Shown here: positions 5,041-51,752 of the stretch, in pieces | How the letters are laid out: every line of letters starts with the position of its first letter | How positions within the stretch are numbered: position 1 is the first letter of the stretch | From: an uncultured bacterium | GTDB lineage: Bacteria > Patescibacteriota > Minisyncoccia > Phycocordibacterales > PALSA-1337 | Direction of reading: 5' to 3' | DNA: 64,000 nucleotides | Assembly (NCBI GenBank): GCA_963848635.1 | Contig: CAWKEA010000005.1 | Location: 111,341-175,340, forward strand | Made by a program: the position numbers and the translations under genes | The notes under the pieces: generated by a model | Database searches by the model: none | What the model was told of the DNA's origin: nothing | What the model saw: the letters and a program-made list of their open reading frames with translations, nothing else

Positions 5041-6378
5041 TCAATCCATGACTTCTTCACCATGAACTCTCCTTATATCAACGCCGAGAGCAGTCAAAGT
5101 CTCTTCGAGCGATTCATAGCCGCGATCTATGAGATGAACGTTATGTACAACAGAATTTCCTTTTGCAAGGAGGGCTGCGAGAACTATTGCAAAGCCCGCG
5201 CGGATGTCGTGGGCTGTGAGCTCTTGGCCGGCGGACAAAGCTTTGTATGAGGTCGGACCAGTGACAAGGATCTCGCGAGAATTCATGACTTTAATATTTG
5301 CACCAAGATTGTTTAAATCGTCGACATACTTGAACCTTCCCTCGAAGATAGTTTCAAAGACGATACTCTCGCCTTTTATTTGGGACAAGTAGACTGCGGC
5401 GATCGGCTGGAGGTCGGTCGGAAAGCCTGGATATTCGTGCGTGCGAATGCTTGCAGATTTAAAAGAAGAATTCTTAAGTTTACCGTTCCCCTTTACCCTA
5501 ATAAAATCTTTTCCTATTTCAAGGGGTACGCCGGAGCTTGCAAGAAAATTTGTCGTCGCTTCCAAATGCTTTGGCTCGCATTTTGAGACGAGGAGGTCGT
5601 CCGCGCACAGAGCTCCGAGAAAAAGAAAGCTGGCCGCTTCGATCCGATCTGGAATCGCTCTATATGATTTTTTGGCCTTTAATGGTTTTCCGCCGCGAAT
5701 CGTCATCGTCGTCGTACCTGCACCATCGATTTTTGCTCCGCATTCATTCAGCCATTTTGCGACGCTCTCGATCTCTGGCTCCATGGCGCAATTCTTGAGA
5801 GTTGTTGTCCCCTTTGCCAAAACAGCCGCCATCATTAGGGTTTCTGTGCCAGTGACAGTCTGGATCGGAAAGAAGATATCCGCCCCTCTCAAGCCGTCTT
5901 TCGGCGCGGTTATCTTGAACATGCCGTCTTTTTCAAGAACGATCGCGCCCATTTTCTTGTATGCTGTGATAAAGAGATCGACTGGTCGCGCGCCGATGAC
6001 ACAGCCGCCAGGCGACGGAAAAGAGACCTCGCCGTAACGCGCGAGTATAGGACCGGTCGTTACAATAGACGAGCGCATGCTCTGCGAGATAAGAGGATCG
6101 AGATCGGCAGAAGAAAGATCCGAGGCATCGATCGAAAGCATATCCCTGCCGCCGCTTTTTCGCTTTTCCACCTTCGCGCCAAGTCCTACGAGCAGGTCAG
6201 ACATGCTATCGATATCGGCTGTGAGGGAAATATTTCGGATATCGATCGCGTCTTTAAAAAGGATGCTCGCCGCCATCGCCTTCAAAATAGCGTTTTTCGC
6301 GCCCTTGATTCGCACTTCGCCGCGCAAGGCCTTCTTGCCCGCGAGGCCTTTTACGACGAATGAGTCAGTTTGGGACAT
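5041..6378 (-). CDS. murA: UDP-N-acetylglucosamine 1-carboxyvinyltransferase MurA
   Basis: VKGLAGKK...RIKGAKNAILKAMAASIL N-terminus, conserved along the whole length; probable start MSQTDS at 6378. Confidence 0.9.
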   Translation of the reverse strand: MSQTDSFVVKGLAGKKALRGEVRIKGAKNAILKAMAASILFKDAIDIRNISLTADIDSMSDLLVGLGAKVEKRKSGGRDMLSIDASDLSSADLDPLISQSMRSSIVTTGPILARYGEVSFPSPGGCVIGARPVDLFITAYKKMGAIVLEKDGMFKITAPKDGLRGADIFFPIQTVTGTETLMMAAVLAKGTTTLKNCAMEPEIESVAKWLNECGAKIDGAGTTTMTIRGGKPLKAKKSYRAIPDRIEAASFLFLGALCADDLLVSKCEPKHLEATTNFLASSGVPLEIGKDFIRVKGNGKLKNSSFKSASIRTHEYPGFPTDLQPIAAVYLSQIKGESIVFETIFEGRFKYVDDLNNLGANIKVMNSREILVTGPTSYKALSAGQELTAHDIRAGFAIVLAALLAKGNSVVHNVHLIDRGYESLEETLTALGVDIRRVHGEEVMD

Positions 6379-6501
6379 AAGCACAGTATATATTTTTTTA
6401 GGGAAAAGAAAAGGCAAAAATCTCTTGAGAAAGCCGATAGATAAATGGTTTTCAATATATGAAATTCCCTAATCAGGGGCGGTTTTGTATACCCAGCTTG
6501 A

Positions 6502-6870
6502 GTGTTGCGCTTCAAAGTCGTATCTGCCATAATTTCGATTATGACATTCATTAAAAAACACAAATATGCTCTAACCTCTTTGCTTGTCAGTATTCTCTTG
6601 ATCTTTTATTGGGTATCATTGTCCGCAGTAGTTCCTGTGGTCTATCCAGGATATGAATCATTCCAATGGGTAATATTCATGAATCTACCACTACCGATTA
6701 CTTCAATTTTAATTATCGTCGCGATATTATTTGGTATCCTAAGTATTGTGAAAAAAGAACCTAGAAGGTTAGGATATATGTCTACTATAATAGGAATAGT
6801 ACCGCTAGGAATGATGATTCTTTATTTTTTAGCTGTAAATTTGATCTGTACTGGCGGATCGGGTTGTTGA
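6502..6870 (+). CDS. Small multi-TM membrane protein, hypothetical, in an AT-rich segment
   Basis: Three or four hydrophobic helices; GC content far below the neighbours. Confidence 0.4.
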   Translation: MLRFKVVSAIISIMTFIKKHKYALTSLLVSILLIFYWVSLSAVVPVVYPGYESFQWVIFMNLPLPITSILIIVAILFGILSIVKKEPRRLGYMSTIIGIVPLGMMILYFLAVNLICTGGSGC

Positions 6871-6930
6871 AATCCATTAATATAATTTGATTGTTTAATA
6901 TCAACTTCGTTTCAGACAGAATTCTGTTCA

Positions 6931-6962
6931 TAATAAAAAAGGGCCCATCTTTCGATGTGCCC
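6931..6962 (-). terminator. Rho-independent terminator downstream of the HAF-repeat gene
   Basis: On the minus strand agggcacatcgaaagatgggccct followed by tttttt. Confidence 0.6.
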
Positions 6963-6981
6963 TGTGATAACCAAAGAACTG

Positions 6982-9696: not shown

Positions 9697-9788
9697 ATCT
9701 ATCTTCTCTTTCTTTTTGTATTTTGTGTATTTTATTTTCAAAGACGACATACAGCAGGTATATCGTCGGGCTAGCAACTAGAACTTAA

Positions 9789-16491: not shown

Positions 16492-19268
16492 TTATTTTTT
16501 ATACTTCTCGTTTATCTGCGCTTCTATCTCCGCGCGATCCTTGCCATAGGTCAAGTATGATAATTCTTTCAGCTTGCCTGCGATATCGCGATCGCCTTTT
16601 GGAATGTTCGGCACTGCTATATTGAATGGCTTCACAGGAATGCCTTTTGCGAGGATCTTTACATATGCGTTGAAGTTGTCGATATTGAGAATATCTTTTT
16701 GGGTAAAGACGGGCTCGAATTGCTTTGCAAGGAATTCAGCGTCTTCGGTGCCGACGCGGAAGATGGCCATGGATCCGACGTTGCCGAAGACGGCGTTCTT
16801 TATCTTTTCATCGAGCTGTTTGATGAATTGGTGCGCGATGTTAAGCGACAATTTATATTTGCGCGCTTCGGACAAGATCGTCGAGATGGAATCGGTGGTG
16901 ATATTCTGGAATTCATCGACATACAGATAGAACGGCGGCAGATCCTTGCCCAATCGAATCGACGCGCGACAGAGCAGCCATGAGGATCTTGCCGATCAAA
17001 ATGAGGCCGATGAGGTTCGCGTTGATGTCGCCAAGGCGGCCTTTGGACAGATTGACGAGCAGGATCTTCTTATTGTCCATGATGTCGCGGAAATTGAAGG
17101 TCGATTTTTCCTGGGCGATGACCGGGCGCATGATATCGTTGGCCAGGAAATTGTCGAATTTGGAGACGATGTACGGCACGATGTTGGCGAGCGACGCCTC
17201 ACCGCCAGCTTTGTCCGCCACCTCGCGCCAGAACTGGATGACAAGCGGATTCTTGCACGTGGCCAATTTCGATTCGCGGAAAGCCTTGTTTGAAAGGACG
17301 CGCGAAACGTCGATGAGCGTGTTATTTGACGAAGGGTCATCAATGGTAAGGAGGACCGCATTGCGGAAATATTGCTCGAACATAGGCCCGCCTGCGGTCT
17401 TCATATCAAAAAGCTTGTTGAATATTGAGAGCATCTCGTTCACGACGAAGGTCTTTTGCTCGGGATAGCGAGTATCATATTCGAGCATGTTCAAGCGCCA
17501 TCGGCCGCGCAGTATAGGCAGGATCGAAATAGATGACGTCCTCGAACCGGTTCGGCGGCACGAGGGAAAGGATGTCTTCGACGTCGGATCCGTGCGGGTC
17601 GATAAAACAGAGGCCATTCCCTTTTTGCATGTCCTGAAGGATCATGTCCTTGAGGAGAGTCGTCTTGCCGGTGCCTGTCTGGCCGATGACGTAAAAATGG
17701 CGCAAGCGGTCTTCGTCGGTCGTGAACACCTTTGTCTCGCGGCCTCGGTCGCTGTTTTTGCCGAGATAGGTGCCCGATTGCGGCAAGTCCATCGGCGCGG
17801 GAGCAGAGCCTGATTTCGTCAATTTGACCTGCGATGTCGAAATGCGGCCAGCGACCGGCAAATGCATGACGGTGGCCAACTCGCGGAGAGAAAGCGGGCA
17901 ATCGTAATCGCCATCGAATCGCCGATATGTGAAGGTATCGAGCTCTTTTTCGAGCTTGCCCTTTGTCGCGCGCGCGAATTCAAAGCGATTGCCAAGCGTA
18001 TTCTCGAACTGGCTGAAAGAGGCCTCGAGGTCGGTCAAGATCGCATCTGCCTTCTCTTGGCTTTCCGCCGAAGCGACGATGCGGATGTTGGTCGACAGAA
18101 TAGGCGAAGCGAGCTTGCTCTGTATCTCTTTCATCCCGAGCTCGTCCTCTGGACGCGGCCCTTTCTGAGACTTTTTTTCTTCTTTTTTCTTTTCCTTGTC
18201 CTCCTTGCTCGTCGTAAGATTGTTCAAAAGGCCGACCATGCCGGAAGCGGCGCCCTTTATAGCCTTGTGGCCGAGAGAATAGGCGATATCGATCGCTTCG
18301 CTGAGCTTTTCGCCTTTTTGTATCTTCTCAAGCGCTTTCCTATATTTATCTGAAAAAAATCCGCCGACAGGATTGAAAACGATCTGAATGCATCCTCCTT
18401 CGCCGTCCTTGTCGATCTTTGAGAAACTGTTCAAAAGCGCATTGATCGGGTCATGGTCGAACTGCTCATATGTCTTTATGGGAAAGATATGATTCCGCGC
18501 CTGCCGTGCATATGAAGCCGCCACAGCCCCTTTTTCATTGAAGATATTGAAATCGTCCTTGTGCTCGGTTATTTTCGCGTCGGGAAATATCGAAAGGATC
18601 TGCTTTTCGAAAAGATTGCGCTTCTCGTCTGGCACGGCGGCATAAAAGACAAAATCGTCGCTGTGATTGGCCACGGCGATCTCAAAGGCAAAGATGCTGT
18701 TCACGCCGCCGCTATTGACTGACATTCCCGCGTAGAACTGTTCCATGGATGAAAGGAGCTCTTTGAGCGGCTTCTGCGTCCCGTCTTTCTTTTCATTTTC
18801 CGGCACAAGGATCTCGAACAGCGACATCTTGAGAGAGCTCCACAGATCGTCTTTCTCTTTCAAGCCGCCGATGATAAAGCCGGATTTTATATATTGCACG
18901 AGCAATCGATGGAAGTCGTCGGAGACGTGCGGGTCATCCATCTTTTCGACGACGGAAAGGGTCGCATGGATGCCTTTCGTCTCAAGCATGCCGAGAAGCT
19001 CGTTCATCTTTCCATCGTGCGCTTCCGGCGCGAGGTCGAGCACGACGGCCTCCATCTCCGGCGTCGGCACGATGTATTTTTCGTGCAAAACCTCGTCAGG
19101 CTTTTTCTCGGCATATTTCACGACTTCCTCGCGCGCCACATGCTCGACGCTCCCATCTGGCGTCTTTTCGAGCAGGTCGCGCTCGCGCCTTGCGATCATC
19201 TCGCGCAGATATGCGATCTCCTCCTGCGGATTGGTGAATTTTTCCTGCGTGCCTGTTAGGTTTTCCAT
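16492..19268 (-). pseudogene. VirB4/TrbE/CagE-family type IV secretion ATPase with a 440-aa N-terminal domain, split into three frames (two frameshifts near 17490 and 16935)
   Basis: Walker A GQTGTGKTT, then in the next frames ...LLVNLSKGRLGD...ILMAALSR and ...PPFYLYVDEFQNI...EARKYKLSLNIAHQFIKQL, the VirB4-type Walker B and RK..QS motifs. Confidence 0.65.
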
Positions 19269-26213: not shown

Positions 26214-26460
26214 AGCTATAACAGCTGTCTACTGAACTCAGGATTTTATATCAAGAGTGATTGGAATTCTAACCAATTCTTTTAAAGAACAGCTGAACGT
26301 AAATTACCATACAAATATTGTATTGTCCACTCGACGTTCTTTTTCTCAAAAGGCAACGCTTGCGCTAATATCAGCATCAGCACGGGTTCTATTCTTTTTC
26401 CTTTTACATATTTTTGATTGCCGCTTTCCCATCCCAGCCTCCTCATATTCCTAATACATA

Positions 26461-26652
26461 AAAGTTGACAAGAAAGTTGTCAACTTTTATGGACAAGAAA
26501 AAAACGCCTCACAGGAAGCGTTTGAAACGGTCATGGGAAACTACATCATACTGAGTGGATTCCCTTCAATTTCCTTGGCAACAAAAAGTTGACAAGAATC
26601 TTGCCAACTTTCAACGGCAAGAAAAAAGCGCCGGCCGGGTGACGGCTGGCGC
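26461..26652 (-). repeat. Two tandem copies, 122 bp apart, of a module consisting of a minus-strand terminator hairpin with T-run plus a TTGACA-containing palindrome (agttgacaa N5 ttgtcaact)
   Basis: Unit 1 at 26461-26523 and unit 2 at 26583-26652 share aaagttgacaagaa..ttg.caactt...caagaaaaaa plus a GC hairpin. Confidence 0.6.
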
Positions 26653-26673: not shown

Positions 26674-27105
26674 TTAACCTTCCATCCCAAACGAATCTGG
26701 ATAATGACGTATCGGTTCGAGCCTGGCATATTCGCGATCAGCGTGCCGTCGGCCGATAATGATTTTGTCGCCTTTCTCTTTCTGGCCAAGAATCCATCGA
26801 CAATAGAGCACTTTGCCGCTCTGATCGGTCGAATCATATCCGACCTTGACAGCGCAGTATCCGAGCAAGGATCGCACATTGTTGCCTCTGATGAACAAAG
26901 TTGCTGGTCCGAGTCCACTCAAATACGTCCACTCGCTACTTGCACCGTCCTTGTTTTTTGTGCCGCCCCATGACGAACCACCGAAGCCCCAGCCAAACGT
27001 GTTCGAGATAACGCGGCATACGTGTCCACAGATTTTTTGAATGAGCATAATTTCCTTTCTTTTGGAATTTAAACCAAGGATATGATTGATTTGGGTAATT
27101 GTCAA
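26674..27105 (-). CDS. Hypothetical secreted protein, possibly an RlpA-like double-psi beta-barrel
   Basis: Weak resemblance only (GYDSTDQSGKVLYCRWILG...IIIGRRHADREY); overlaps the rarA stop by 4 nt. Confidence 0.35.
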   Translation of the reverse strand: MTITQINHILGLNSKRKEIMLIQKICGHVCRVISNTFGWGFGGSSWGGTKNKDGASSEWTYLSGLGPATLFIRGNNVRSLLGYCAVKVGYDSTDQSGKVLYCRWILGQKEKGDKIIIGRRHADREYARLEPIRHYPDSFGMEG

Positions 27106-28274
27106 GATTTCCTCTTCAGGTATTTCTTCCCTTTCAATTTCTCCGGCAGGTAGCCGCTCTTGTCGTATTTTTCATAGCCTTTGCCATAATTCAGATCTTT
27201 CATCAATTTCGTCGGCGCGTTGCGGATGCGGAGCGGAATGGGCAAGTTCCCTGTCTTCTTTACATCAGACAAAGCCTCCATGTAGGCGTCGTAGGCACTG
27301 CGGTCTTTGGCGGCGAGGGCAAGGTAGGCCACGCCGTGCGCGAGGTTCTCGCGGCATTCGGGCAGCCCGATATATTCGACAGCGGCAAAGACGGCGTTGG
27401 CGACGACGAGGGCTGTCGGCTGGGCGAGGCCGATGTCTTCGCTGGCGAACACGACCATGCGGCGGGCGATGAACTTGGGGTCTTCGCCGCCTTCGAGCAT
27501 GCGGGCCAGATAGTATATGGCGGCGTCAGCGTCGCCGGCGCGCATGCTTTTGATGAAGGCGCTGATGGTGTCGTAGTGCTCTTCTCCTTTTTTATCGAAA
27601 CGGATAAAGGAATGCTCGAAGGTGTTCTTGAGATTCTCCAGCGTTATCGGCCCGTAGAGGCGCTGGCAATTCTCGATAGCGGTGATGGCGATGCGCGCGT
27701 CGCCGTTCGACAGTGCCGCCAGCCATTCGAGGGCGTCCTTGCCTACTTTTATCTTGGTCCTCTTTACGATGGCCTTGATATCCGCCTCGGTCAGCGGTTG
27801 CAGGACAAAGACCCTGCAGCGCGACAGGAGCGCGGGGATGACCTCAAAGCTGGGATTCTCCGTCGTCGCGCCGATGAGGGTGAGCCGGCCGGACTCCACA
27901 TAGGGCAAAAGAAAATCCTGCTGGGCCTTGTTGAAGCGGTGGATCTCGTCGAGGAATAGCACTTTTGGGCGGCCTTCGAGCAAGGTGTCCGGTTCGTCGA
28001 TGATCTTCCTTATGTCTTCTTTCCCTGCCGAAACAGCAGAGAGCTCATATATCCTGGCATTGACCGCCTTCGCATAGATCCTGGCAATCGTCGTCTTGCC
28101 AGTGCCGGGTGGGCCCCACAATAGAAAAGAAAACAGATGCTTGTCATCAATGGCTTTGCGGAGCGGTTTTCCTTGGCCCACTAAATGCTCTTGACCGACA
28201 AAGTCTTTGAGAGTTTGAGGCCGAATCTTGTTTGCGAGGGGTTCCATGACGTAAGTATACGCTTTTTTGTGCAT
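27102..28274 (-). CDS. rarA: Replication-associated recombination protein A (RarA/MgsA), AAA+ ATPase
   Basis: [16 protein letters not shown] Walker [11 protein letters not shown] Walker B, sensor motifs and C-terminal MgsA helical domain. Confidence 0.9.
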
Positions 28275-29054: not shown

Positions 29055-29179
29055 GGTATTTGCCTTTCTTTTTTGCGGCGTATCCCTGAGGGAAATGCCT
29101 TTGTTAATGAGCAATCAAGCCCTTGAAATCACACGATTCCAAGGCTGGTCACTTCGTGATCTACTATACCACGATTTGT

Positions 29180-29270
29180 ATGTATTTGCAAGATACCGCC
29201 TGCCCGACGAATTCAGCCAGATTTTGCTGGCGAATTTTTGAGGCGAGGGGTTCCATGGCGTAAGGATACT
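29180..29270 (-). repeat. Diverged duplicate of the rarA promoter and 5' coding end (MEPLASKIRQQNLAEFVGQAV... then stop)
   Basis: gcgaggggttccatggcgtaaggatac at 29239-29268 matches gcgaggggttccatgacgtaagtatac at the true rarA start, 28233-28259; translated similarity continues for about 20 aa. Confidence 0.6.
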
Positions 29271-29304
29271 CTCAAAAATAAGAAATCTATACTATAATTA
29301 TTCC

Positions 29305-30582
29305 TTATTTTTCCATCTCTTCCTTTAAAAATTCTCGCGCACCGGGTGTAGTCATCCATATATTGCCTTGAGCTTGCCAGTATAGCCATGCCTCGTCTTC
29401 GCCACCGACTCTTACTCGGCCAGGGATAAGTTCAGGTTGTGGATGTTCTATTTTTAATATCTCCTTGAATACATGCAAGTTATATTTTTTATGCATTTTT
29501 ATAGCCGCCTTGACTTCATCGAGCCGTCCAAGCTTGTACAGAGCCAGAATTTTTCCTGTAACAAGTTCTTGTACCATATCTTCGGGATATTTCTCCGATA
29601 AAACCAGAAGCTTTTCGAGCTTGCCAGTCTTGAGGTAAGCTGTAGCCAGAAAAGCGCGCATCCCTTGATTGTCATTCGGATTGAGAGCGATCATCTCTTC
29701 GTAGAGCGGTATTGCCTGCAATGGGCCATCCTCGGTATCGACAAAAGTTGCGTACTCTCCCAGCAAAAGCATAAACGGCCTATTTTCAAGCATTGCCCAC
29801 ATTAAAATATCTTTACCTAACTTGAAATCTTTAGGCAATAAAGCTCGACCTGCAGTAATTGAGTTTTCTAAAACATTCCTTGCGCTCTTCGCATCTCCTC
29901 TCATAAAAGCGTTCTTGGCAATGCGAATCGCTCCTTCAAAAAATAAAGGATGCTTTTCAACAGCAATCTTCATCATCTCGACTATATCTTCTGCATTATC
30001 TAAAAGCATCCTATCCTCCATGAGCTGTTCATCGAGTTCTTCACCGATATCTTCATCAATAGCATCTAAATCACGGATCATGCTACGCAACATTTGAATC
30101 TCGATTGGATACTCAAATTCCCATTCATTTTTTGCTCTTTTCACGATTCGAACATCTTTCGGAAATCGTTTTGAAAATATTTCATAAAAATTGCGGCGAT
30201 ATTTCAACGGCAGATCGGCTGCTGTATTTTTTTCTCCTTTGCTCTCTTTCCTACTGCGTTCAACCATCTCGCGCGGAGATAGACCGTTCAATGAATTGTG
30301 CGGAAAATGATTCCAGGCCTCCATAACAAGATCTGCTCCTTTTTGAAAGTCTTTTTGAGATGCATTTTCAAGAAGAAACGTGATCATTCGTGATGGCAAC
30401 TTTATATCATCATCGTTCCAAATCATATCTTTCATATCGTCTACTGTCAATTTCTCGTGGATATTCAACGTGGAAAGAAAGCGGCCTAATCTTTCCTCAA
30501 ACTCCATGAGATCGAAATAAATATCGCTCTTCAACAAATGAATATCAGGTATAACTTTTTTTGTTTTGATGATTTTTTTCAT
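29305..30582 (-). CDS. Hypothetical protein, 425 aa, with TPR-like helical repeats in the C-terminal half
   Basis: Helical-repeat sequence; no catalytic motifs seen. Confidence 0.5.
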   Translation of the reverse strand: MKKIIKTKKVIPDIHLLKSDIYFDLMEFEERLGRFLSTLNIHEKLTVDDMKDMIWNDDDIKLPSRMITFLLENASQKDFQKGADLVMEAWNHFPHNSLNGLSPREMVERSRKESKGEKNTAADLPLKYRRNFYEIFSKRFPKDVRIVKRAKNEWEFEYPIEIQMLRSMIRDLDAIDEDIGEELDEQLMEDRMLLDNAEDIVEMMKIAVEKHPLFFEGAIRIAKNAFMRGDAKSARNVLENSITAGRALLPKDFKLGKDILMWAMLENRPFMLLLGEYATFVDTEDGPLQAIPLYEEMIALNPNDNQGMRAFLATAYLKTGKLEKLLVLSEKYPEDMVQELVTGKILALYKLGRLDEVKAAIKMHKKYNLHVFKEILKIEHPQPELIPGRVRVGGEDEAWLYWQAQGNIWMTTPGAREFLKEEMEK

Positions 30583-30604
30583 GATTCGATGATATCATAC
30601 ACCC

Positions 30605-30643
30605 ATCCCAGCTGCCATTTGAAGTGTGTGGTGACGAGCTCTA
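30605..30643. repeat. Direct repeat A: copy of the last about 36 bp of the histidine phosphatase gene (encodes ..LVTTHFKWQLGW)
   Basis: gctgccatttgaagtgtgtggtgacgagct is 29/30 identical to 32030-32059. Confidence 0.8.
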
Positions 30644-30653
30644 ATAATGGCCG

Positions 30654-30941
30654 TTATGATTCTTGCATATAATCTATCACGATTTCGATTATTTTTTTGA
30701 CGGTCTCATTGCAGTTCTTGAATGAAATCTTATCTATGATCTCACCGCCAAGGACTCGAATGACATCGCTTATGAGCGCGTGTACGAATGATTGCGTCGC
30801 TGAATCGACGCCGACAAAATCTAAAGTCACTTCCTCGCCTTTTTCTAAAGCAGGGATTATCTTCTCTTTTCGTAAAGATTGTGCGATGTCTTTATTTTCT
30901 GCAAATGAGCCGACATGATCGATGAGTTTTATTATTAGCAT
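30654..30941 (-). CDS. STAS-like small protein (DUF4325-like), predicted partner of the upstream GHKL ATPase
   Basis: 95 aa; ..IIPALEKGEEVTLDFVGVDSATQSFVHALISDVIRVLG.. resembles STAS-like single-domain proteins encoded next to HATPase_c proteins. Confidence 0.55.
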   Translation of the reverse strand: MLIIKLIDHVGSFAENKDIAQSLRKEKIIPALEKGEEVTLDFVGVDSATQSFVHALISDVIRVLGGEIIDKISFKNCNETVKKIIEIVIDYMQES

Positions 30942-30968
30942 GATATTTTTTGTATACTATTGGATGGA

Positions 30969-31931
30969 TTAAATAAATTTTGGTTTGCGGTATCGTTCAA
31001 CCCGTCTTTCCCTGACTGCCTTTCTGTAGGTATCTCTGATAAGGTCAAGCAAAGCATTGAATTCATTCGTTGAGTCGAGCGATATGTCTATCCCGATTAC
31101 GGTTCCCCGCCAAACAGGCATATCTGGACTTTCCGAGTGCCTATCAAATACAGGATCTGCATGCAGCATCAACTCCTTTTCCTCCTTTCTACGTAATAGT
31201 TTATACATACCCATGCCACTATATATGACAAAAAAATCCCGATTAGTATAAGCGATAGATTTTATGAAGAATAGACCAGCACCAGCATTCTGAGCAGTAC
31301 CACCACCACGCGACGTTGTACCAGTAACCCCCGGCATCATTGCAAGTTTGATCGCATCGATATCGTCACTCGTCGCATGCGCACGGCTCAAACTCTTTCG
31401 TATGCCGATGCCAGTGTCAGCGATGCCGATACGGATCGAGTTGCTTTTCTTAAAGTATTGAGCGCATAGGATCGCGCCGTCTTTCGTCTCCGCGTGCTCC
31501 AAAACATTTCGAACGAGCTCACTGACGATATATCTGATAGGTTCTGCCTGTTGTGGCGCTAGATGCAGCATTGGTATCATCTCTGTGATAAATCTCGTCA
31601 ACTGATCCGAGTTCGTTATTTGCGTTAACGGCACGAATCTGCCTGACGGATCATGCTCGGTGATTTTCATGCCAGATTCAACTCCTAAAAAATTGAATAG
31701 GCCCATTCTTTCGAGGTAATGTCCTGATCTTGCGGTGATTTTTTGGCATTCAATATTTTTCTTACCTAATTTTACGGCAAGAGAAGCGATCATACTCAAA
31801 GCAACAGGATGTAGCCATATCCATTTATCGGCAGCCGTTATCGAAAGCCTATAGGAATCACTAGGATCAAACCCTGTAATGAATTGGTCTATGTTTCCCA
31901 GAAAAGCACCGTGTGGTAAATGTATCTTCAT
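30969..31931 (-). CDS. GHKL-superfamily ATPase (histidine-kinase/anti-sigma-kinase-like HATPase_c) with a 130-aa N-terminal extension
   Basis: N-box SELVRNVLEHA, G1 box IADTGIGI, G2 box GGGTAQNAGAGLFF; no HisKA/phosphoacceptor domain. Confidence 0.7.
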   Translation of the reverse strand: MKIHLPHGAFLGNIDQFITGFDPSDSYRLSITAADKWIWLHPVALSMIASLAVKLGKKNIECQKITARSGHYLERMGLFNFLGVESGMKITEHDPSGRFVPLTQITNSDQLTRFITEMIPMLHLAPQQAEPIRYIVSELVRNVLEHAETKDGAILCAQYFKKSNSIRIGIADTGIGIRKSLSRAHATSDDIDAIKLAMMPGVTGTTSRGGGTAQNAGAGLFFIKSIAYTNRDFFVIYSGMGMYKLLRRKEEKELMLHADPVFDRHSESPDMPVWRGTVIGIDISLDSTNEFNALLDLIRDTYRKAVRERRVERYRKPKFI

Positions 31932-32003
31932 ACCGGGAATTCTACATTATACACGAAAATTAGCAATTTTCTATAATTCCCGGTGATTTAAGCCATAATT
32001 TAA

Positions 32004-32582
32004 CTACTTCATATCGTAACACCACCCTGGCTGCCATTTGAAGTGCGTGGTGACGAGCTTTTCATACGGCGTGCCCTCGAGGATATGCTGGATGGCGTAC
32101 TGGGTGGCGCGGTGGCCGATGATCATGACTCTCTTGCCGGAATAGTCGCGGGCGAGGTCATCGAGAAAGGACTTCATGCGCGCCAGGGTTTGGTCATAGC
32201 TCTCGCCATTCGGGAACGGGACATGGAGGCGGCCGGGCTTTTCCGCGTCGACGACTTCGCTCGGCTTTTGGGTCAGGTCGCCATAGTCGCATTCGCGTAG
32301 ACGTTTATCGCGGATTATAGGCCAACGATTTCCAAAGCCGATCTCTGCCGAACGATAGGCGCGAGCCAGGTCCGAGGTGAAGACCGCGTCGAAATGGTCG
32401 TCCTTGTACCTCTCGCCCATCTCGCGCGATTGCTGCTCGCCGAGTGGCGACAAAGCCACGTCGTTCCAGCCCGAGGAAAGGTGGGCTTCATTGTCGAACG
32501 TCGTGCCGTGCGCTTCAAAGATGAGGCCTACGGCTCTCTGAGCCTCAGGCTCGAATGAGGTGAGGGGTTTGGGCATGTGCAA
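32004..32582 (-). CDS. Histidine phosphatase superfamily protein (phosphoglycerate-mutase-like); catalytic RHG appears as AHG
   Basis: GLIFEAHGTTFDN...SPLGEQQSREMG...DAVFTSDLARA follows the branch-1 histidine phosphatase layout. Confidence 0.65.
   Translation of the reverse strand: MHMPKPLTSFEPEAQRAVGLIFEAHGTTFDNEAHLSSGWNDVALSPLGEQQSREMGERYKDDHFDAVFTSDLARAYRSAEIGFGNRWPIIRDKRLRECDYGDLTQKPSEVVDAEKPGRLHVPFPNGESYDQTLARMKSFLDDLARDYSGKRVMIIGHRATQYAIQHILEGTPYEKLVTTHFKWQPGWCYDMK
32024..32061. repeat. Direct repeat B: the native 3' end of the histidine phosphatase gene, partner of repeat A
   Basis: Same as repeat A; the two repeats bracket 30644-32023. Confidence 0.8.
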
Positions 32583-32715
32583 AGTATATACCAGACCCCT
32601 TGATTTTCAAGCTGCTTTGATGTATATTCTTAGAGTCTTTCGGTCGTACCATTTGACCGAAAGGGTTTTACATCCAAGGGCAGTCCTCCTCGCGGAGGGC
32701 TGCTTTCGTTACTGC

Positions 32716-33282
32716 CTATTCGAGCTGTTGTCGACGCTTTAACTCCCTGCCCCAGATATCATCTGTAATGTCGAGCACATCGAAATATCCGTCTGTTCCT
32801 GTCTTTAATTCTTGTGAGATATTGTTCTTTGAGGAGAATACGAAGACTTTCTTGCCGCCGTTGCGGACATACGAGACGAGCGCCAAGAAATCAGAATCGC
32901 CGGAGAATAGGACTGCTGTGTCGTATTTTTTCATATGAGTGATCACATCTATAGTTATTTCAACGTCCATGTTGCCTTTTTCTTCGATAGCTTCTCCGGT
33001 CGATGTCGTTACGGTTATCCGCTTCAGCTCTTTTTTGCGAACGGTTATGCCCAGTCCTTTTTTCATATAGGTGAAGAATTTATGCTTGCCATCGAGGTCA
33101 TAATCCCTCGTGCCTTCTTTTGGATAGGCTGTGTAATAGAAGAACTCGACAGATGAACCCTCGAGCTTTGTCTTGAGCACCTCCTTCAACTTTGCATAAT
33201 CAAAAAAGCGACCCTTGGTCTTCTGGGCTTGCCAAACGTTCGATGCGTCTATGAATACCGAGATCCTGTTTTTACTGGACAT
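32716..33282 (-). CDS. NYN/LabA-like (PIN-fold) nuclease domain protein
   Basis: ISVFIDASNVW...FSGDSDF acidic NYN motifs. Confidence 0.7.
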   Translation of the reverse strand: MSSKNRISVFIDASNVWQAQKTKGRFFDYAKLKEVLKTKLEGSSVEFFYYTAYPKEGTRDYDLDGKHKFFTYMKKGLGITVRKKELKRITVTTSTGEAIEEKGNMDVEITIDVITHMKKYDTAVLFSGDSDFLALVSYVRNGGKKVFVFSSKNNISQELKTGTDGYFDVLDITDDIWGRELKRRQQLE

Positions 33283-33514: not shown

Positions 33515-34630
33515 ATGCCTAATTTCATTGGAGAGAAGGAAATATTCGATATCAAAATCAAATCCACCTTAGAAAACATGGAGGTTCTAAAGAAACTTGA
33601 GACGGCGTCACGCTGTATAGGAGAGGTCAACAACATCGTCTCAAATGTTCTAGAATTTGATTTCATCATTTCAGCCCTAAAAAATATAGAGGCTCTTAAT
33701 AGTGCCCGCATAGAGGGAACGACTGGAAATCTCAAGGATCTATACCTTGAAGAGTCTCTCGATTTCGAAAAGAAGAAACGCCTGAAGCTTTTTAGCGCTG
33801 TAAACTACAAGCTCACAATGAGCGAGCTAGAAGACATCGTCAAAGGACACAAGGTTGTCGATTTGTCCTTGATCCGACATTTGCATAAACTTCTCACCGA
33901 AAATGATCCATCGACCCAAGGAACTCCGGGTAGCTTTAGAAATGTTGAGGTAAAGATACAAAACAGTAAGCTGGGAGATTTTTACCCCGTGCATCCAACA
34001 AAAATGCAGGATTTCACGTCAAGGCTGGTGGCTGAGATTGATTCCAGATCTGCTTTCCCTTCTCTGTTGCAAACGGGAATAACCCACTATCAATTTGAAT
34101 CTATACATCCATTTGAGGATGGAAATGGTAGGACTGGCAGATTGCTCATCATCGCGCAATTGCTTATCGATAAATCTCTCATATCTGCAGTATTGAATTT
34201 GAGTCAGTACTTTGATACTCATCGAGAAGAATACGTCGCTGCGCTAAGATCTGTGAGCGATAAAGCTGATTTCACTGATTGGATACTATTCTTTCTTGAA
34301 GCAATCATATGCCAGACTGTGCATAATATTGACCTTATTAAAAAACTAAGATCTCTAAAAGAGAGCAACGAAATGCTCATAAATGAAAATACCCGTTCTT
34401 CGGCGGCTTTGCACGTGTTGAACCATTCTCTCAATGAGCTATATATCACGATAACGAGCGCGGAGGCATTTCTTCGAAAGAAAAAAGTTAAGGGTGATTT
34501 GAGACAAATGGCAAGAAATAATATCTTATTGCTCAAAAAAATTGGCATCCTAGACATAACTACTTACAAAAAAGGCCGTTCTCAAGCTTATGTGCATAAG
34601 CAGCTTAAAGATATGTTGATGAGACCATAG
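33515..34630 (+). CDS. Fic/Doc-family protein (Fido), class II, with N-terminal inhibitory helix
   Basis: Active-site HPFEDGNGRTGR; inhibitory motif SARIEG ((S/T)xxxE(G/N)) near the N-terminus. Confidence 0.85.
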   Translation: MPNFIGEKEIFDIKIKSTLENMEVLKKLETASRCIGEVNNIVSNVLEFDFIISALKNIEALNSARIEGTTGNLKDLYLEESLDFEKKKRLKLFSAVNYKLTMSELEDIVKGHKVVDLSLIRHLHKLLTENDPSTQGTPGSFRNVEVKIQNSKLGDFYPVHPTKMQDFTSRLVAEIDSRSAFPSLLQTGITHYQFESIHPFEDGNGRTGRLLIIAQLLIDKSLISAVLNLSQYFDTHREEYVAALRSVSDKADFTDWILFFLEAIICQTVHNIDLIKKLRSLKESNEMLINENTRSSAALHVLNHSLNELYITITSAEAFLRKKKVKGDLRQMARNNILLLKKIGILDITTYKKGRSQAYVHKQLKDMLMRP

Positions 34631-38600: not shown

Positions 38601-39728
38601 TTATTGTCCTAAAAATGTGGTAATGCCTGTCTGATTCGTCGAACTGCCATTCGTGCCGGTCGTGAGCCAGCTGACGATAGTATACACCGAAACCCACGCA
38701 ATGAGCATGATACCGAAACCGATTCCAGCGGCCGTGAAGATGCCGTTCGCCTTGCTACGATTGCCCGGCGTGCCTAATATGTAGAGAACCCCACCATAAG
38801 CGAATAGGACGATCGCTATAGGGATGGCTATGGCGAAAAGCCAATTGACAATAGTACGGCCCTCGATCAAGAGCTCGCTAAAATCACAGGTAGGAAGGCT
38901 ATTGTCCGTATTGTTCGGATTCGAAAGGTCGGTCGCGCCCTTGCATTTGACGAGACCCGTAGGGCCGGTGGCATTTGTGTTCGTGTTCGTGTTTGTGTTC
39001 GCCGATGCTGAAGTATTCGCAGTTCCATTCGTGTTTCCAGAAGTTGAAGGACCTGTGCCGACATTCACAGTAGGAGCGTTGACGATATTTTGGCCGCAAA
39101 AACCTGTGTTTGGGTTATAGGTATAGCCTGACTGGCAGTTTGTAGTGCTGTTCATAGGTAGAGCGCAATATCCAAGAACTGAATTATAGACATAGCCATA
39201 GGAGCAACTATTGTTGCTGGTATTTGAATTTGAAGAAGAAGTGCTTGGGGCAGGGACTATAGTCAAGAGGACCGGAGAATCAGTGACATACGTTTCGAGC
39301 GACGGATTATCGGTCGTATAGTCCAAGATAAGCCCATATGTTCCCTGGTGAGATCCGATACTGCTCGGGTTGATCGCATAGGTCGTAGTGGCTCCGGTCG
39401 TCGGAACTCTCTGGAGAAGGAGCGTGCCGGTAGCGAATGTCGACGGATCGGCCAAATATATCTCAATAGAAGGGTTAGACTGATTTGAAAACGAGGGCAA
39501 GGATCCGACCAGGACATAGCCGCTCTGCCCTATCTGCCATGTCGCCGAATTGTTATTGGTGCCGGTGCCATCGTAGTTGAGCGGATAGAACGGCACCTCT
39601 TGCGCACTGCTCTGGGCGATGTTCTGCGCATAAGCAGTCGACGCGACAGGCGCAGTGGAGATGGCGACGAGCGCAATTGCCGCGACAATGAAATAGCTTG
39701 CTAGAGAGATTTTTCTGATATGTTTCAT
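38601..39728 (-). CDS. Large S/T/N-rich, Cys-containing extracellular protein with the same C-terminal two-TM hairpin (paralog P5); contains an (NT)n repeat
   Basis: Signal peptide, low-complexity ectodomain, C-terminal ..NWLFAIAIPIAIVLFAYGGVLYILGTPGNRSKANGIFTAAGIGFGIMLIAWVSV. Confidence 0.6.
   Translation of the reverse strand: MKHIRKISLASYFIVAAIALVAISTAPVASTAYAQNIAQSSAQEVPFYPLNYDGTGTNNNSATWQIGQSGYVLVGSLPSFSNQSNPSIEIYLADPSTFATGTLLLQRVPTTGATTTYAINPSSIGSHQGTYGLILDYTTDNPSLETYVTDSPVLLTIVPAPSTSSSNSNTSNNSCSYGYVYNSVLGYCALPMNSTTNCQSGYTYNPNTGFCGQNIVNAPTVNVGTGPSTSGNTNGTANTSASANTNTNTNTNATGPTGLVKCKGATDLSNPNNTDNSLPTCDFSELLIEGRTIVNWLFAIAIPIAIVLFAYGGVLYILGTPGNRSKANGIFTAAGIGFGIMLIAWVSVYTIVSWLTTGTNGSSTNQTGITTFLGQ
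38974..39000. repeat. Hexanucleotide microsatellite (ttYgtg) x4-5 inside P5, encoding NTNTNTNTN
   Basis: gcatttgtgttcgtgttcgtgtttgtgttcgcc read directly. Confidence 0.7.
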
Positions 39729-48300: not shown

Positions 48301-51300
48301 CTATGCGAGAGGGATATTTGGGCAGACGATATTGATCAACCTTCCTTTTACAAGGATGATCCTTGATGGCGTCCCTCCATTGAGCCATTTTTTGACTGAT
48401 TCGAGCGCCAGTGCGGCGGTTTTGACGGCCTCATCAGAAGCATCGGCACTGACGTCCATTTCAGCCCTGGTTTTGCCGTTTATCTGCACGGCAATCTTGA
48501 TGCTTGACCCGACCAAGAGCGCCGGATCATATGCTGGCCAGGATTGCGCATGGATCGAGCCTTTGTTTCCAAGCACGCTCCAAAGCTCTTCGGTGATATG
48601 CGGCGCGAATGGCGCGAGAAGTTGCAAGAAAATGCCATAATTTTCTTTCGACACGGTTCCTTCGCCTGCAGCAGCTTTCTTGTCCTCCGTAGCTTTAGCG
48701 GAGGAGGATTCAAACTCGTTCAAGAGGATCATGAGAGCCGAGACGGCGGTGTTGAAGCGCATTGATTCGATGTCCTCGGAGACTTTTTTGATCGTTTTGT
48801 GGACAAGGGGGATGAGCTTTGGGTTTTCATTTTTGAGTTTTGCATTTTGAGTTTTGCATTTTTCTTGCAGTTTCCACACACGTTCAAGGAAACGGCGACA
48901 GCCGACGATGCCGTTCTCGTCCCAACTGATCGCCTGATCGAACGGACCCATGAACATCTCGTAGAGGCGCAGTGAATCGGCGCCGACGTTTTTGACGATT
49001 GCGTCGGGATTGATGACATTGCCGCGGGATTTCGACATCTTTTCTCCGCCGGGACCGAGGACGAAACCGTGCGCAGGTGCGCTTTGATATACGGTTCGGA
49101 TGTCGGAACGAGCCCTTGATCAAAGAGGAATTTGTGCCAGAAGCGCGAATAGAGGAGGTGCAAAGTGACGTGTTCCATGCCGCCGTTGTACCAATCGACC
49201 GGCGTCCAATGCTTCAATTTTTTCATATCAGCGAATTTCGTCGCGTTCTTTGGATCTGTATAGCGCAGATAATACCAGCTCGAGCCTGCCCAATTCGGCA
49301 TAGTGTCCGTTTCGCGCTTTGCTTTACCTTTACATTTAGGACATTTTACATTCACCCACTTTGAAATAGCCGCAAGCGGCGATTCGCCTGTTTCGGTCGG
49401 CTTGTAGTTTTTGACCGGCGGCAATTTGACCGGCAAGTCTTTTTCAGGAACCGGCACGATGCCGCATTTTTCGCAGTGAACGACGGGAATCGGCTCGCCC
49501 CAATATCGCTGGCGCGAGAATATCCAATCGCGCAGTTTGAACCTGTTCACCCATTGGCCGCAGGCGTATGCAGTGATCTCTTTCCTTATTTCGGCGCTTT
49601 TCTTGTCATTGAAACTGCCAGAATTTATGAGCAATCCTTCGCCGATGAAAGCGATATCAGTCTCGGAATGCAATCGAGCGAGCCAGAGCGGCAATTCCGA
49701 ATTGACCATCTTGCCGGGGATGAAATCAGCGGGGTCAATCCAGAGTATCTGGTTGCCTTCGCCGTTCTCGTCCGTTATCGGCACCCGCGCGTCGCTCTTC
49801 AATTCAAAGTAAAGGCCTGTGGCGATGGCGATCCTGTTCTCATCCTTGTGCTTGGCGAAATATTCGGCGCGCACCGGAGAGCCGAGCTTCTTCTTGAACT
49901 CGATATCGGTGTAGCCTGTCTCCTCCCTGACTTCCCTTTTTGCCGCTTCCACAAAATCCTCGCCAGCCTCGACACCGCCGATGACGACGGTATCCCAGCC
50001 ATGCTTGTCGTTTCGTATGATCAAATATTTTTTCTTGAGAGGGTCAAAGACGATCGCGTGCACGTTCGTCCGTATCTTGGACGGCTTGTCCGCGCGCGGC
50101 GGGTTCACATGGTCGACGATGCACGGCATTATGGCTTCCTTTATCGGTAAATCATATTTCTTGGCAAAGGCAAGATCACGGTCGTCGTGCGCTGGCACGG
50201 CCATCACGGCGCCGGTGCCGTAATCGGCAAGTACGTAGTCGGCGATGTATACGGGCACTTCTTCGCCGTTAACGGGATTTATCGCTTTGACTCCTTTCAA
50301 TTCGACGCCCATTTTTTCGCGGGTTGCATCGGTGCGTTCGATATCGCTTTCTTTCTTTGTCCTCGTTATATAGATAAGAGCCTCGCTCCTGTTTTTAATC
50401 AAAGGAAGAAAATCGCGGACCAGCGGATGCTCGGGAGCGAGCACGAGATATGTCACGCCGAACAAAGTGTCTGGGCGGGTAGTGAAGACCGTGATCGATG
50501 GCACGACGGCTTTCAATATTTCAGGTTCTTGATCTGCACGAAAATGCTCTCCATTGCTCTTTGTCTCTATGAGGCGAGCTTTCAAATTATTCGAAAGATG
50601 GCGAATATATTCGATTCTGAATTCTTCTTTAAGATCAGAGAGGATCGATATCTTTCCATTGGCCAAGCGTCGAATGAGATCATAATCTATATTCCAAGTA
50701 AAATTCTTCCAGTATGGTCTAGATTCAGCTTTGGGAAAAGAAGGATCGATTGCAGGAGAAACAAGAACAAGCCCAAAGATCGGTTTGTTCAACTTCATCA
50801 ATGCTTTCATCGCAACTACAGAGCCAAGCGAATGAGCGACGATGACGGTATTTTCATCGATCTTGCAATTTTGCAACACATATTCGACTTGTTCCGATTC
50901 TCTTGGATCCTCTGTGTTTGGAAGTTCGGGGATCTCAACTTCGTGACCGCGGCTTTCAAGTTCTGACTTGAGCCAGGCCCGAAAACTTCCTTTGGCGCTT
51001 CCTCTAAAACCATGAAGCAAAATGTATTTTAGTTTTTGCGGGCTCTTGAGTTCAAAGCTTATCTCCGCGCCTTCGCTCTTTCCGATCCAATTCCTCTGTT
51101 GGGCCTTGATCTCCGGCAAGTAATTCACCAGATCGAGGTCTTTGTCGAGGCGGTCGGCATATTTCGTGATGGCGAGCATCCACTGCTCCTTCTCGCGCTT
51201 TTCGACCGGCGTGCCGCAACGCTCGCATTTGCCGTCGACGACTTCCTCGTTGGCAAGGCCGATCAGGTCTTTCGGGCACCAATTGATGGCCATTTTTTTC

Positions 51301-51752
51301 TTGTAAGCGAGGCCATTCTTCAAGAATTGAAGGAAGATCCATTGCGTCCATTTATAGTAGTTCGGATCGGTCGTATTTATCTCGCGCGACCAATCAAAGG
51401 AAAAGCCGAGCGATTTCAATTGCTTGCGAAAAATAGCGGTGTTTTTCTTTGTGACGACGGCTGGCTGTATGCCGGTCTTGATCGCATAGTTCTCTGTCGG
51501 CAAACCAAAGGCATCCCAACCGATTGGATAGAGGACGTTGTAGCCTTCGCGGCGGCGCTTGCGCGAGATGATGTCCATGGCCGTGTTGCTCCTGATGTGC
51601 CCGACATGAAGGCCGTCGCCGGATGGGTATGGAAATTCGATGAGCGAATACCATTTCGGCTTCTTGGACGTGTCGCTCGCGACAAAAGCCTTTTTCTTGT
51701 CCCATTCCTTTTGCCATTTCGGCTCGATTTTTTTGTGGTCGTAGGGTTTCAT
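48301..51752 (-). CDS. leuS: Leucyl-tRNA synthetase with two in-frame inserted domains (alpha/beta-hydrolase at about 50499-51035, NUDIX at about 49659-50123) and an apparent frameshift at about 49069-49082 before the KMSKS motif
   Basis: HIGH-region PYPSGDGLHVGHIR, CP1 editing motifs TTRPDT and GTGAVMAVPAHD, KMSKSRGN in the downstream frame; inserted HGFRGS..VAHSLGS..D..H serine-hydrolase unit and Nudix box GGVEAGEDFVEAAKREVREETG. Confidence 0.85.

Follow-up and report, generated by a model that had tools for sequence, protein, structure and literature searches.

The 64-kb window described here (64,000 nucleotides (nt) of contig CAWKEA010000005.1, the whole stretch of DNA that was analysed) is an ordinary chromosomal stretch from an ultrasmall bacterium of the Paceibacteria, in the Patescibacteria or Candidate Phyla Radiation (CPR). 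Two conserved and co-oriented host genes, one for a histidine phosphatase (termed Phos below) and one for the AAA+ ATPase RarA (also named MgsA), frame four cargo genes in this window, and among the cargo genes lie displaced fragments of the two host genes themselves, namely a remnant of the Phos 3' end and a remnant of the RarA 5' end. Comparable scars with variable ends recur in related genomes around unrelated cargo, and we lean, if modestly, towards homology-anchored insertion-duplication and exchange at conserved gene ends as their origin. Two of the cargo genes encode a GHKL ATPase of 320 amino acids (aa) and a DUF4325 protein of 95 aa with a STAS fold, and this pair has the look of a partner-switching-type switch, for which a role in conflict is favoured.

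Displaced ends of Phos and RarA among the cargo genes

Every gene across 27.1-33.3 kb of the window is carried on the minus strand. Read in the direction of transcription, the locus consists of Phos, the HATPase and DUF4325 genes, the Phos 3'-end remnant (p), a 425-aa TPR gene, the RarA 5'-end remnant (r), a 243-aa gene and RarA (Table 1). A previous sequence-only reading of this DNA had described the HATPase and DUF4325 genes in terms that hold up, and its coordinates for these two genes and for Phos are corrected in Table 1. The likely true start of Phos is the ATG at 32576 (MPKPL...), and a promoter scan places a TATACT -10 box 6 nt upstream of it.

The repeat that links p to the end of Phos occupies positions 30592-30640 and 32011-32059, with 41 of 49 nt identical (84%) and a start-to-start distance of 1419 nt. 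Its core, 30611-30640 and 32030-32059, is identical at 29 of 30 positions, and blastn assigns the phosphatase-end repeat E-values of 3e-9 to 4e-11. These values confirm a repeat and a core that the sequence-only reading had already noted, although the length of 36 bp given at that time fits neither the 49-nt repeat nor the 30-nt core. The same reading took one copy for the genuine 3' end of the phosphatase gene and the other for a remnant abutting the start of the next gene, and this is borne out by the reading frame and by the overlap of the stop codon. Specifically, p reads ELVTTHFKWQLGWVYDIIES before its stop, has no start codon, and continues the Phos frame to that stop; there, the TGA and the start codon of the 425-aa gene overlap in an ATGA. 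It also contains a candidate promoter for the 425-aa gene (TG-n-TATCAT), 6 nt before the ATG. With its missing start codon and the TGA/ATG overlap, p is a gene remnant and not a motif common to two unrelated genes. Within p, a Pro-to-Leu change alters the WQPGW motif that almost all of the intact phosphatases compared retain, which shows p to be the decaying copy. A protein motif shared by two unrelated genes, which the sequence-only reading had named as the competing explanation, does not describe a start-less sequence that lies in the Phos frame and is decaying.

Just 13 nt separate p from the stop codon of the DUF4325 (STAS) gene. The TAA stop of that gene (30654-30656) is in frame with the p stub, such that readthrough would add 25 residues, which is probably a coincidence.

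The second scar, r, starts ~33 nt past the stop of the 425-aa gene and lies ~1 kb from p. It codes for a 30-aa stub (MEPLASKIRQQNLAEFVGQ...), with an ATG at 29256 and a degenerate -10 box still in place. With this second scar, the 425-aa gene is found to be bracketed by a Phos 3' remnant and a RarA 5' remnant. The whole window was scanned for dispersed direct repeats, with 30 nt as the minimum length, and the p and r pairs emerged as the only gene-end duplications; the other matches were tandem-domain, intergenic or weak (30-34 nt, 70-71%). A search for fragments of Phos and RarA across the 64 kb found none beyond p and r.

The arrangement of the window recurs in two further assemblies, L001, where it is identical, and L165 (GCA_031291935.1), and thus is not an assembly artefact. 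The contigs of both end in the 5' part of the STAS gene, at window position 30906 for L165 and 30894 for L001, which may reflect strain heterogeneity or a recombination breakpoint inside the cassette.

A variable-gene hotspot in related genomes

Species-representative genomes were scanned with Phos, which gave 80 Patescibacteria loci, mostly from Paceibacteria. The Phos orthologues in these 80 genomes are 60-84% identical and share a conserved C-terminal HFKWQPGWxY motif; the nearest homologues reach at most 90% identity and sit on contigs too short to be informative. RarA orthologues that are 82-91% identical lie downstream of Phos in 11 related genomes, and the gap between the two genes measures 8 nt in one of them (L031) and 0.5-4 kb in the others. 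In L031, the TAG of Phos is followed after 8 nt by the ATG of RarA, and this locus represents an empty site. A different empty site had been predicted by the sequence-only reading, with Phos directly followed by the 425-aa gene. That order was not found, and the 425-aa gene has no close relatives outside the lineage. The deeper empty site, Phos directly before RarA, does exist. A metagenome scan with the 425-aa protein gave only relatives of its C-terminal TPR part, at no more than 38% identity and none beside Phos, and a sequence lookup returned only an identical 3-kb contig.

The Phos-RarA gaps have a GC content of 33-42%, versus 43-57% for the flanking genes. Their cargo is unrelated between genomes, AT-rich, mostly of toxin or defence type, and all co-oriented with the flanks. 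It includes genes for Zeta_toxin, GrpB, AAA_15 with an OLD-TOPRIM nuclease, a HerA-like ATPase, DUF4145 and SocA_Panacea, and further for NYN, peptidase M23, DUF2726, pentapeptide, SET and XseAB-like proteins, the last judged by eye from ORF (open reading frame) size and sequence. None of the 11 relatives has the four cargo genes of the window in its gap. Phos-RarA is a hotspot for variable genes with a defence and toxin flavour. The relatives have their outer flanks in common, and the window has only Phos and RarA in common with them. We set aside the idea that Phos-RarA is itself mobile, given that Phos and RarA occur almost everywhere in the clade and have a high GC content in most of the genomes compared.

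Scars recur with variable ends

The gene ends of each genome were compared with that genome's own gap. A Phos 3' remnant of 48 nt (87.5% identical) was found in L008, two Phos 3' remnants of 21 and 26 nt in L059, and two RarA 5' remnants in L049 (130 nt at 87% and 80 nt at 86%). The remnants in these three genomes each separate one or a few genes. A nearly full-length duplicate of Phos (~600 nt, 92% identical) is present in L002 (8389-8954 and 10004-10543), where the upstream copy is a pseudogene with insertions of 24 and 29 nt and a Fic gene in reverse orientation lies between the copies. A third gene end with a scar of this type is the RarA 3' end, a remnant of which is found in L165 (5790-5851), 2 kb downstream of RarA and past inserted genes for a 126-aa protein and a 381-aa HD-domain protein. 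Finally, in L052 the last 84 nt of an unrelated 280-aa gene, including its stop codon, are duplicated after a single 129-aa gene.

The extents of these scars differ from event to event, ranging from 21 nt to the whole gene of ~600 nt. Phos remnants begin at differing codons (VPLEKL, ELVTT, HFKW and FKW), and RarA stubs end after ~17, 22 or 36 codons. Given that the scars surround unrelated cargo at the same two genes, the repeats can be assigned to the locus and not to the cassette. When 1.22 Mb of Phos loci were compared with themselves, 72 dispersed direct-repeat pairs were obtained, and in 19 of them a terminus of a long ORF holds one copy and the second copy falls outside all long ORFs, which suggests that the pattern extends beyond the loci scanned here. 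Nothing convincing was seen in the way of microhomology at the junctions of cassettes and remnants, save for a TTCAAATG duplication next to the second p copy of L059. In L068, a 25-105-nt repeat recurs five or six times within 5.7 kb (2801-8489), its last copy lying at the 5' end of the ORF 8414-8788, and this may be another remnant-separated array.

The kinase-DUF4325 cassette is a unit apart from the repeat

The HATPase-DUF4325 pair forms a self-contained unit of ~1.34 kb that includes a conserved promoter leader. Four independent copies of the cassette show nucleotide homology to it from 32001, which is 3 nt after the Phos stop, to 30660 at the STAS stop, and with these limits the repeat is not part of the cassette. 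The leader contains a perfect 9-bp inverted repeat, CCGGGAATT (31933-31941) and AATTCCCGG (31975-31983), whose arms are 33 nt apart and bracket the kinase promoter, and a -10 box (TAGAAT/TATAAT) of the leaderless type ~7 nt before the ATG. Five copies of the cassette, with 64-83% identity between their proteins, all retain this inverted repeat, which could serve as an operator or as a 5' hairpin.

Other copies of the cassette adjoin genes for UPF0102 and the CCA-adding enzyme, for FtsA/PilM or for an HhH-GPD protein. No flanking gene-end repeats surround the cassette in L082, L086 and L089, and for this reason we have dropped the idea of a repeat owned by the cassette. In all contexts examined the two genes were found as a pair. 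Neither the window nor L082-L093 revealed a third conserved gene, sigma factor or PP2C beside them.

A kinase search yielded 2,996 homologues. At 60-80% identity, the best 120 of these are spread over Zambryski-, Berkel-, Sung- and Uhrbacteria, Omnitrophica, WOR-1, Elusimicrobia, Nanoarchaeota and Woesearchaeota, with both Patescibacteria and DPANN archaea among them; an exact-sequence lookup of the 320-aa protein returned no record. The GC content of the cassette, 38-44%, lies below the 49% of the window and the 56-59% of the flanking genes. The sequence-only reading had regarded the cassette as foreign, and this gap in GC content, together with homologues of such similarity across phyla including DPANN archaea, agrees with it. 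Its proposal of an insertion at the Phos 3' end that duplicates this end is likewise supported. What is not supported is its picture of a small mobile cassette with site-specific insertion of its own, given that the repeat lies outside the cassette and is absent in three other contexts, and that the scars at the locus vary.

A recently exchanged block

L165 covers window positions 30906-26768 with an overall identity of 93%, and the alignment is sharply mosaic. Identity is 100% across the STAS part, the spacer, p and the p tail, 99.2% in the 425-aa gene and 100% in the spacer from that gene to r. It falls to 83% in r and is 96.5% in the spacer from r to the 243-aa gene, 94% in the 243-aa gene, 79% in the intergenic region before RarA and 90.5% in RarA; after RarA it is 70%, beyond which homology ends. 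The switch in divergence falls at r, where 12 mismatches are clustered in ~40 nt (29215-29255) with no indel. The mosaic shows that a cassette-bearing block was recently exchanged between lineages whose RarA genes have diverged by ~10%. The cluster of mismatches in r, whose flanks are otherwise identical, resembles a short conversion patch.

How the scars may have formed

Homology-anchored insertion-duplication and exchange at conserved gene ends is, by our assessment, somewhat better than an even bet as the origin of these structures. The variable lengths of the duplicates, the use of several gene ends and the lack of a recombinase in the window argue against att-specific integration and agree with recombination that is anchored by homology to conserved gene ends. 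Under this proposal, incoming DNA that carries cargo beside a homologous Phos (or RarA) end would recombine with the resident gene end, either by insertion-duplication, in which a circular molecule enters through one Campbell-type crossover, or, after DNA uptake, by homologous recombination on one side and an illegitimate join on the other. Either route would leave two copies of the gene end, their length set by the homology that the incoming DNA had with its target; the copy attached to the gene would remain functional, and the displaced copy would decay. A cassette situated between a gene end and a remnant could then enter any genome with that gene via an ordinary double crossover, whose two arms would be the gene body and, pairing with each other, the remnant and the resident gene end. 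Newer cassettes would stack beside the intact gene and older ones would be pushed inward. Transfer of remnant-flanked cassettes by double crossover would account for the stacking of arrays as well as for the mosaic seen against L165.

Selection is probably at work as a filter too, in that only those insertions that keep the duplication would survive. In this compact genome, the stop overlap and the leaderless-type promoter of one gene lie in the 3' end of the gene before it, and hence an insertion without duplication would break either the upstream gene or the downstream promoter.

Precedents exist for both routes. A single crossover with a circular molecule in Escherichia coli gave duplications of the lacZ end of 109-950 bp that flank the insert, and homology-facilitated illegitimate recombination (HFIR) during transformation has also been described (PMC3240628). 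Natural competence and transformability are described for Saccharibacteria (PMC10633639), and competence machinery is present in Patescibacteria (PMC10633639; PMC12455944).

Several points weigh against insertion-duplication. No donor, circular intermediate or junction microhomology was identified, and a homology of 49 nt is short for a RecA-dependent crossover. A recombinase encoded elsewhere in the genome (~516 kb in the largest contig) could act in trans, the search having covered 64 kb. The variation in scar length could in part be due to decay and not to differing original extents. The cargo in the gaps is all co-oriented, which an orientation-specific mechanism explains as readily as selection for co-transcription does. 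Moreover, the loci scanned were all chosen around Phos and come from Patescibacteria only.

What we regard as the strongest alternative, albeit an unlikely one, is that a tyrosine or serine recombinase acts in trans in an integron- or satellite-like manner. Supplied from elsewhere in the genome or by a visiting element, such an enzyme would insert cassettes that circularise with an attP-like copy of the Phos 3' or RarA 5' end into the resident ends, yielding attL/attR-like repeats and tandem stacking. Integrative elements at gene ends are classically recognised by direct repeats that restore their target, the two p copies of L059 and the two r copies of L049 resemble accretion arrays, and the shared orientation of the Phos-RarA gap cargo fits as well. 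All p copies have a TTCAAATGGCAGC core in common, but this core consists simply of the most conserved codons of the protein. The boundaries of the scars vary on both sides between events, to the point that the whole gene is duplicated in L002, at least three gene ends (Phos 3', RarA 5' and RarA 3') have been used in addition to the unrelated gene of L052, and the HATPase-DUF4325 cassette occurs elsewhere without such flanks. Furthermore, the searches brought no enzyme to light. No integrase, transposase or resolvase domain was detected with Pfam in any gene-passing ORF of at least 150 aa in the window (shadow ORFs excluded), tblastn with an Xer-like and a large serine recombinase gave no match to the window, and none was noticed among the gap ORFs of the 11 relatives, of which ~20 were scanned with Pfam and the rest judged by size and sequence. 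The absence of an integrase reported by the sequence-only reading is thus upheld within the 64 kb of the genome covered. The only tRNA gene of the window is 10 kb away.

More improbable still is the insertion of a single fragment, comprising the Phos 3' end, the 425-aa gene and the RarA 5' end, into a resident array of Phos, HATPase, DUF4325, the 243-aa gene and RarA. One event is more parsimonious than two, the two remnants exactly flank the 425-aa gene, and both the ATGA overlap and the ~33-nt spacing to r are the layout expected between an intact Phos and an intact RarA. Reinsertion at its own locus without the use of homology would nevertheless be an odd coincidence. The STAS gene, p and the 425-aa gene match L165 together at 99-100% while r is on the divergent side, and p-425-r is therefore not the unit that is currently exchanged. 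In addition, the two scars differ in divergence (84% versus 74%), no genome with the order Phos-425-RarA was found, and relatives have arrays with p only (L008, L059) or r only (L049).

A chance match, a motif in unrelated genes or an error of metagenome assembly has a negligible probability: the genome is metagenome-assembled and two other assemblies do break inside the STAS gene, yet the repeat is far too significant by blastn, its remnant runs start-less in the Phos frame to the stop, the structure is identical in three independent assemblies, and equivalent scars occur in other genomes.

Fold and possible role of the pair

Both proteins look like members of a partner-switching pair, in keeping with the anti-sigma-kinase/anti-anti-sigma style that the sequence-only reading had proposed; their folds and the lack of a HisKA domain in the 320-aa protein by Pfam scan agree with it. 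The kinase comprises an N-terminal alpha/beta domain of ~95 aa, a SpoIIAB/RsbW-like Bergerat kinase domain (approximately aa 97-284) and a long C-terminal helix. Its N box (E138/N142), G1 box (D172-G174-G176) and G2 box (G217-G219) are invariant among 40 homologues. The nearest solved folds are SpoIIAB and RsbW, and the protein is closer to the anti-sigma serine kinases than to histidine kinases, GyrB or MutL. A profile of the kinase family gave nothing significant against the sequences of the PDB. We considered that the N-terminal domain might be a second STAS domain and rejected this on the basis of hhalign, which found no relation between the kinase family and DUF4325.

For the DUF4325 protein, the best fold matches are STAS domains, including RsbV (from the RsbV/RsbW complex entry 6m36), RsbS and SpoIIAA. 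The N-terminus of helix 50-64 is marked by three invariant residues (T49, Q50 and S51), of which T49 immediately precedes the helix in the model. SpoIIAA carries its phospho-serine (Ser58) at the N-terminus of the corresponding helix, and by the model the invariant Thr/Ser of the DUF4325 protein would take an equivalent place. The pair hence looks like a partner-switching-type switch. The SpoIIAB/RsbW-fold kinase would have the DUF4325 protein as its binding partner and probably also as its substrate, with the invariant T49 or S51 as the phosphorylated residue. Neither of the cassette proteins shows an evident DNA-binding domain.

The N-terminus of the PADLOC DrmA model PDLC02567 holds both domains in fused form, with the kinase matching positions 67-248 (E 2e-16) and the DUF4325 protein positions 321-390 (E 2e-4). 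No full system was recovered with PADLOC-DB v2, which gave only these matches to the N-terminal 400 positions of DrmA and an insignificant match to PDC-M65A, with no other DISARM genes. DUF4325 is also coupled to VapC-like PIN proteins in the PIN.4 group (PMC5499597), and in the Francisella prophage vB_FhiM_KIRK a gene for a 293-aa hypothetical protein is followed by one for a DUF4325 protein; the two come soon after the CI repressor, and the integrase is a few genes further on (PMC7924643). Mentions of DUF4325 in the literature are incidental, and none demonstrates a function.

We favour as the likely role of the pair a conflict module, similar to a toxin-antitoxin or abortive-infection system, rather than the control of a sigma factor. 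The neighbours at the hotspot, the horizontal spread and the domain fusions suggest this role. For a toxin-antitoxin module in particular there are indirect hints only, namely the coupling of DUF4325 to VapC-like PIN proteins and the overlap of the conserved inverted repeat with the kinase promoter. Two observations count against it: no effector domain, sigma factor or PP2C phosphatase accompanies the pair, and the PADLOC match is limited to the N-terminal part of one DrmA model.

The other role to be considered, and in our judgement a rather doubtful one, is a housekeeping partner switch for stress signalling, in which an anti-sigma kinase and an anti-anti-sigma factor would control a sigma factor or another regulator of the host. 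The closest solved folds belong to the SpoIIAB/RsbW and SpoIIAA/RsbV/RsbS families, homologues of the kinase are labelled 'anti-sigma regulatory factor (Ser/Thr protein kinase)' by JGI, and the kinase has a weak match to NCBIfam spIIAB (E 5e-4, far under the cutoff). However, neither a sigma factor nor a PP2C accompanied the pair in six contexts examined, and the pair is patchy, has spread horizontally and is AT-rich relative to its host. The hotspot elsewhere holds genes of toxin, nuclease and defence type, the domains are fused in the DrmA-type model and paired with PIN toxins, and anti-sigma kinases have no counterpart to the additional N-terminal domain and the C-terminal helix of this kinase.

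Features of the locus and its surroundings

The coordinates of the locus are collected in Table 1. Leaderless-type -10 boxes are found 6-8 nt before the ATG of Phos (32583-32610), RarA (~28250-28263), the kinase gene and the 425-aa gene (30589-30623). The 243-aa protein has no match in Pfam, PADLOC or NCBIfam, and is called as a 243-aa gene in L001 and L165 also.

Table 1. Coordinates of genes, remnants and repeat copies between Phos and RarA in the window
Feature	Position	Strand	Description
Phos, His_Phos_1 histidine phosphatase	32004-32576	minus	Conserved host gene; Pfam E 2e-31
Intact repeat copy p*	32011-32059	minus	Functional last Phos codons, reading ...KLVTTHFKWQPGWCYDMK before the stop
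Conserved cassette leader	31932-32001	minus	Starts 3 nt after the Phos stop; kept in five independent copies
GHKL ATPase, 320 aa	30969-31931	minus	HATPase_c_2, 28.8 bits versus cutoff 27.4
DUF4325 protein, 95 aa	30654-30941	minus	STAS fold; E 1.5e-14
Phos 3'-end remnant p	30579-30640	minus	Repeat copy 30592-30640, then original tail
TPR-containing cargo gene, 425 aa	29305-30582	minus	Between both remnants; Pfam TPR_19 / Tcf25; GC 40%
RarA 5'-end remnant r	29164-29272	minus	Repeat copy 29201-29272, 74% over 72 nt
Cargo gene, 243 aa	28323-29054	minus	263 aa from upstream TTG; between r and intact RarA
Intact RarA-end repeat copy r*	28192-28263	minus	GCGTATACT promoter box and first RarA codons
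RarA/MgsA AAA+ ATPase	27102-28247	minus	Conserved host gene; Pfam MgsA_C E 2e-50

Directly upstream of Phos are genes for an NYN-domain nuclease (32716-33282, minus strand) and a SoFic-type Fic protein (33515-34630, plus strand; PADLOC E 4e-69), both AT-rich. Given these genes and the Fic gene between the Phos copies of L002, the upstream side of Phos may also be a hotspot. Downstream of RarA, a 49-nt intergenic direct repeat (84%) occupies 26460-26508 and 26584-26632, and each copy carries a palindrome, AAAAGTTGACAA..TTGTCAACTTTT.

Further features lie in more distant parts of the window. A leucyl-tRNA synthetase ORF of 1007 aa (48301-51752, minus strand) contains inserted alpha/beta-hydrolase (aa 244-347) and NUDIX (aa 561-681) domains, and its anticodon-binding domain is encoded by a separate overlapping ORF (48301-49038). 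Functions related to type IV secretion are represented by a TraG-D_C domain protein within three overlapping ORFs (16492-19268, minus strand), and a protein with a type IV secretion system (T4SS) pilin domain is encoded at 38601-39728 (minus strand). Lastly, a 931-aa ORF (6982-9777, minus strand) has a tandem period of ~135 nt (five copies, 8540-9384) and a weak match to DUF3466.

Wider implications

Patescibacteria have tiny genomes with few recognised mobile elements, and yet defence functions are over-represented among the genes that they have gained horizontally (PMC12455944). We put forward a broader proposal as a tentative one, whose chances we place clearly below even. Paceibacteria, and perhaps Patescibacteria generally, may acquire genes in an integrase-free, integron-like manner, with gene termini as reusable landing pads and the displaced copies as portable homology arms and promoters, and the kinase-DUF4325 pair may be an uncatalogued two-gene conflict system of CPR bacteria and DPANN archaea. 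If so, stacked arrays, mostly of one- or two-gene defence or toxin units, would move between species by plain homologous recombination. Should the scars be traces of a general, recombinase-free way of gaining genes, they would offer a simple signature by which recent acquisitions and hotspots of defence genes can be found in uncultured lineages, account for the spread of cassettes in the absence of integrases, and show how insertions are tolerated by compact genomes whose signals overlap. The pair itself is a concrete candidate for a new kinase-based toxin-antitoxin or abortive-infection module.

Comparison with known systems

Insertion-duplication and HFIR come close to what is seen here in that the insert lies between direct duplicates of a target gene, the duplicate length varies by event, and no dedicated recombinase is needed. 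The duplicates in the present arrays are mostly shorter (21-130 nt, versus the 109-950 bp of the E. coli lacZ case; PMC3240628), and what was a laboratory event there is represented here by natural, recurrent arrays of multiple cassettes between conserved genes.

Islands and prophages that integrases place at gene ends also have direct repeats that rebuild the target end, stacking, and cargo rich in defence and toxin genes. In contrast, no integrase and no constant att boundary was found in our case, several gene ends are used, and each cassette consists of one or two genes and hardly any further DNA. Integron arrays likewise consist of co-oriented units of mostly one or two genes with short repeats between them, and the newest unit is apparently beside a fixed site. 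Unlike integrons, however, the arrays described here have no IntI, attI or attC hairpins, and their repeats are fragments of the flanking host genes that differ between the two sides of the array. The resemblance to defence islands flanked by core genes lies in the two conserved genes that frame a variable, AT-rich set of defence type, and in recent exchange with a breakpoint inside the locus. Exchange through the flanks alone leaves no duplicates of gene ends, whereas here such duplicates are frequent and are apparently used as internal recombination arms.

The kinase-DUF4325 pair is similar to SpoIIAB-SpoIIAA and RsbW-RsbV in having a small STAS-fold protein, adjacent genes and, in the model, an invariant Thr/Ser at the N-terminus of the STAS helix. 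It differs in that it has no sigma factor or PP2C partner, its kinase measures 320 aa versus ~140 with the addition of a 95-aa N-terminal domain and the C-terminal helix, its STAS protein is DUF4325 by sequence and not of the SpoIIAA family, and the pair is mobile across phyla and domains. Both of its domains match one DrmA model of DISARM, yet no helicase, DUF1998 or other DISARM component is present. With the VapC-DUF4325 pairs of the PIN.4 group it has DUF4325 in common, without the PIN domain. Partner-switch folds, hotspots flanked by core genes and insertion-duplication are each already known. What is new is the occurrence, in an ultrasmall bacterium, of integrase-free stacked arrays that are marked by gene-end remnants, together with a very widespread and uncharacterised kinase-DUF4325 pair.

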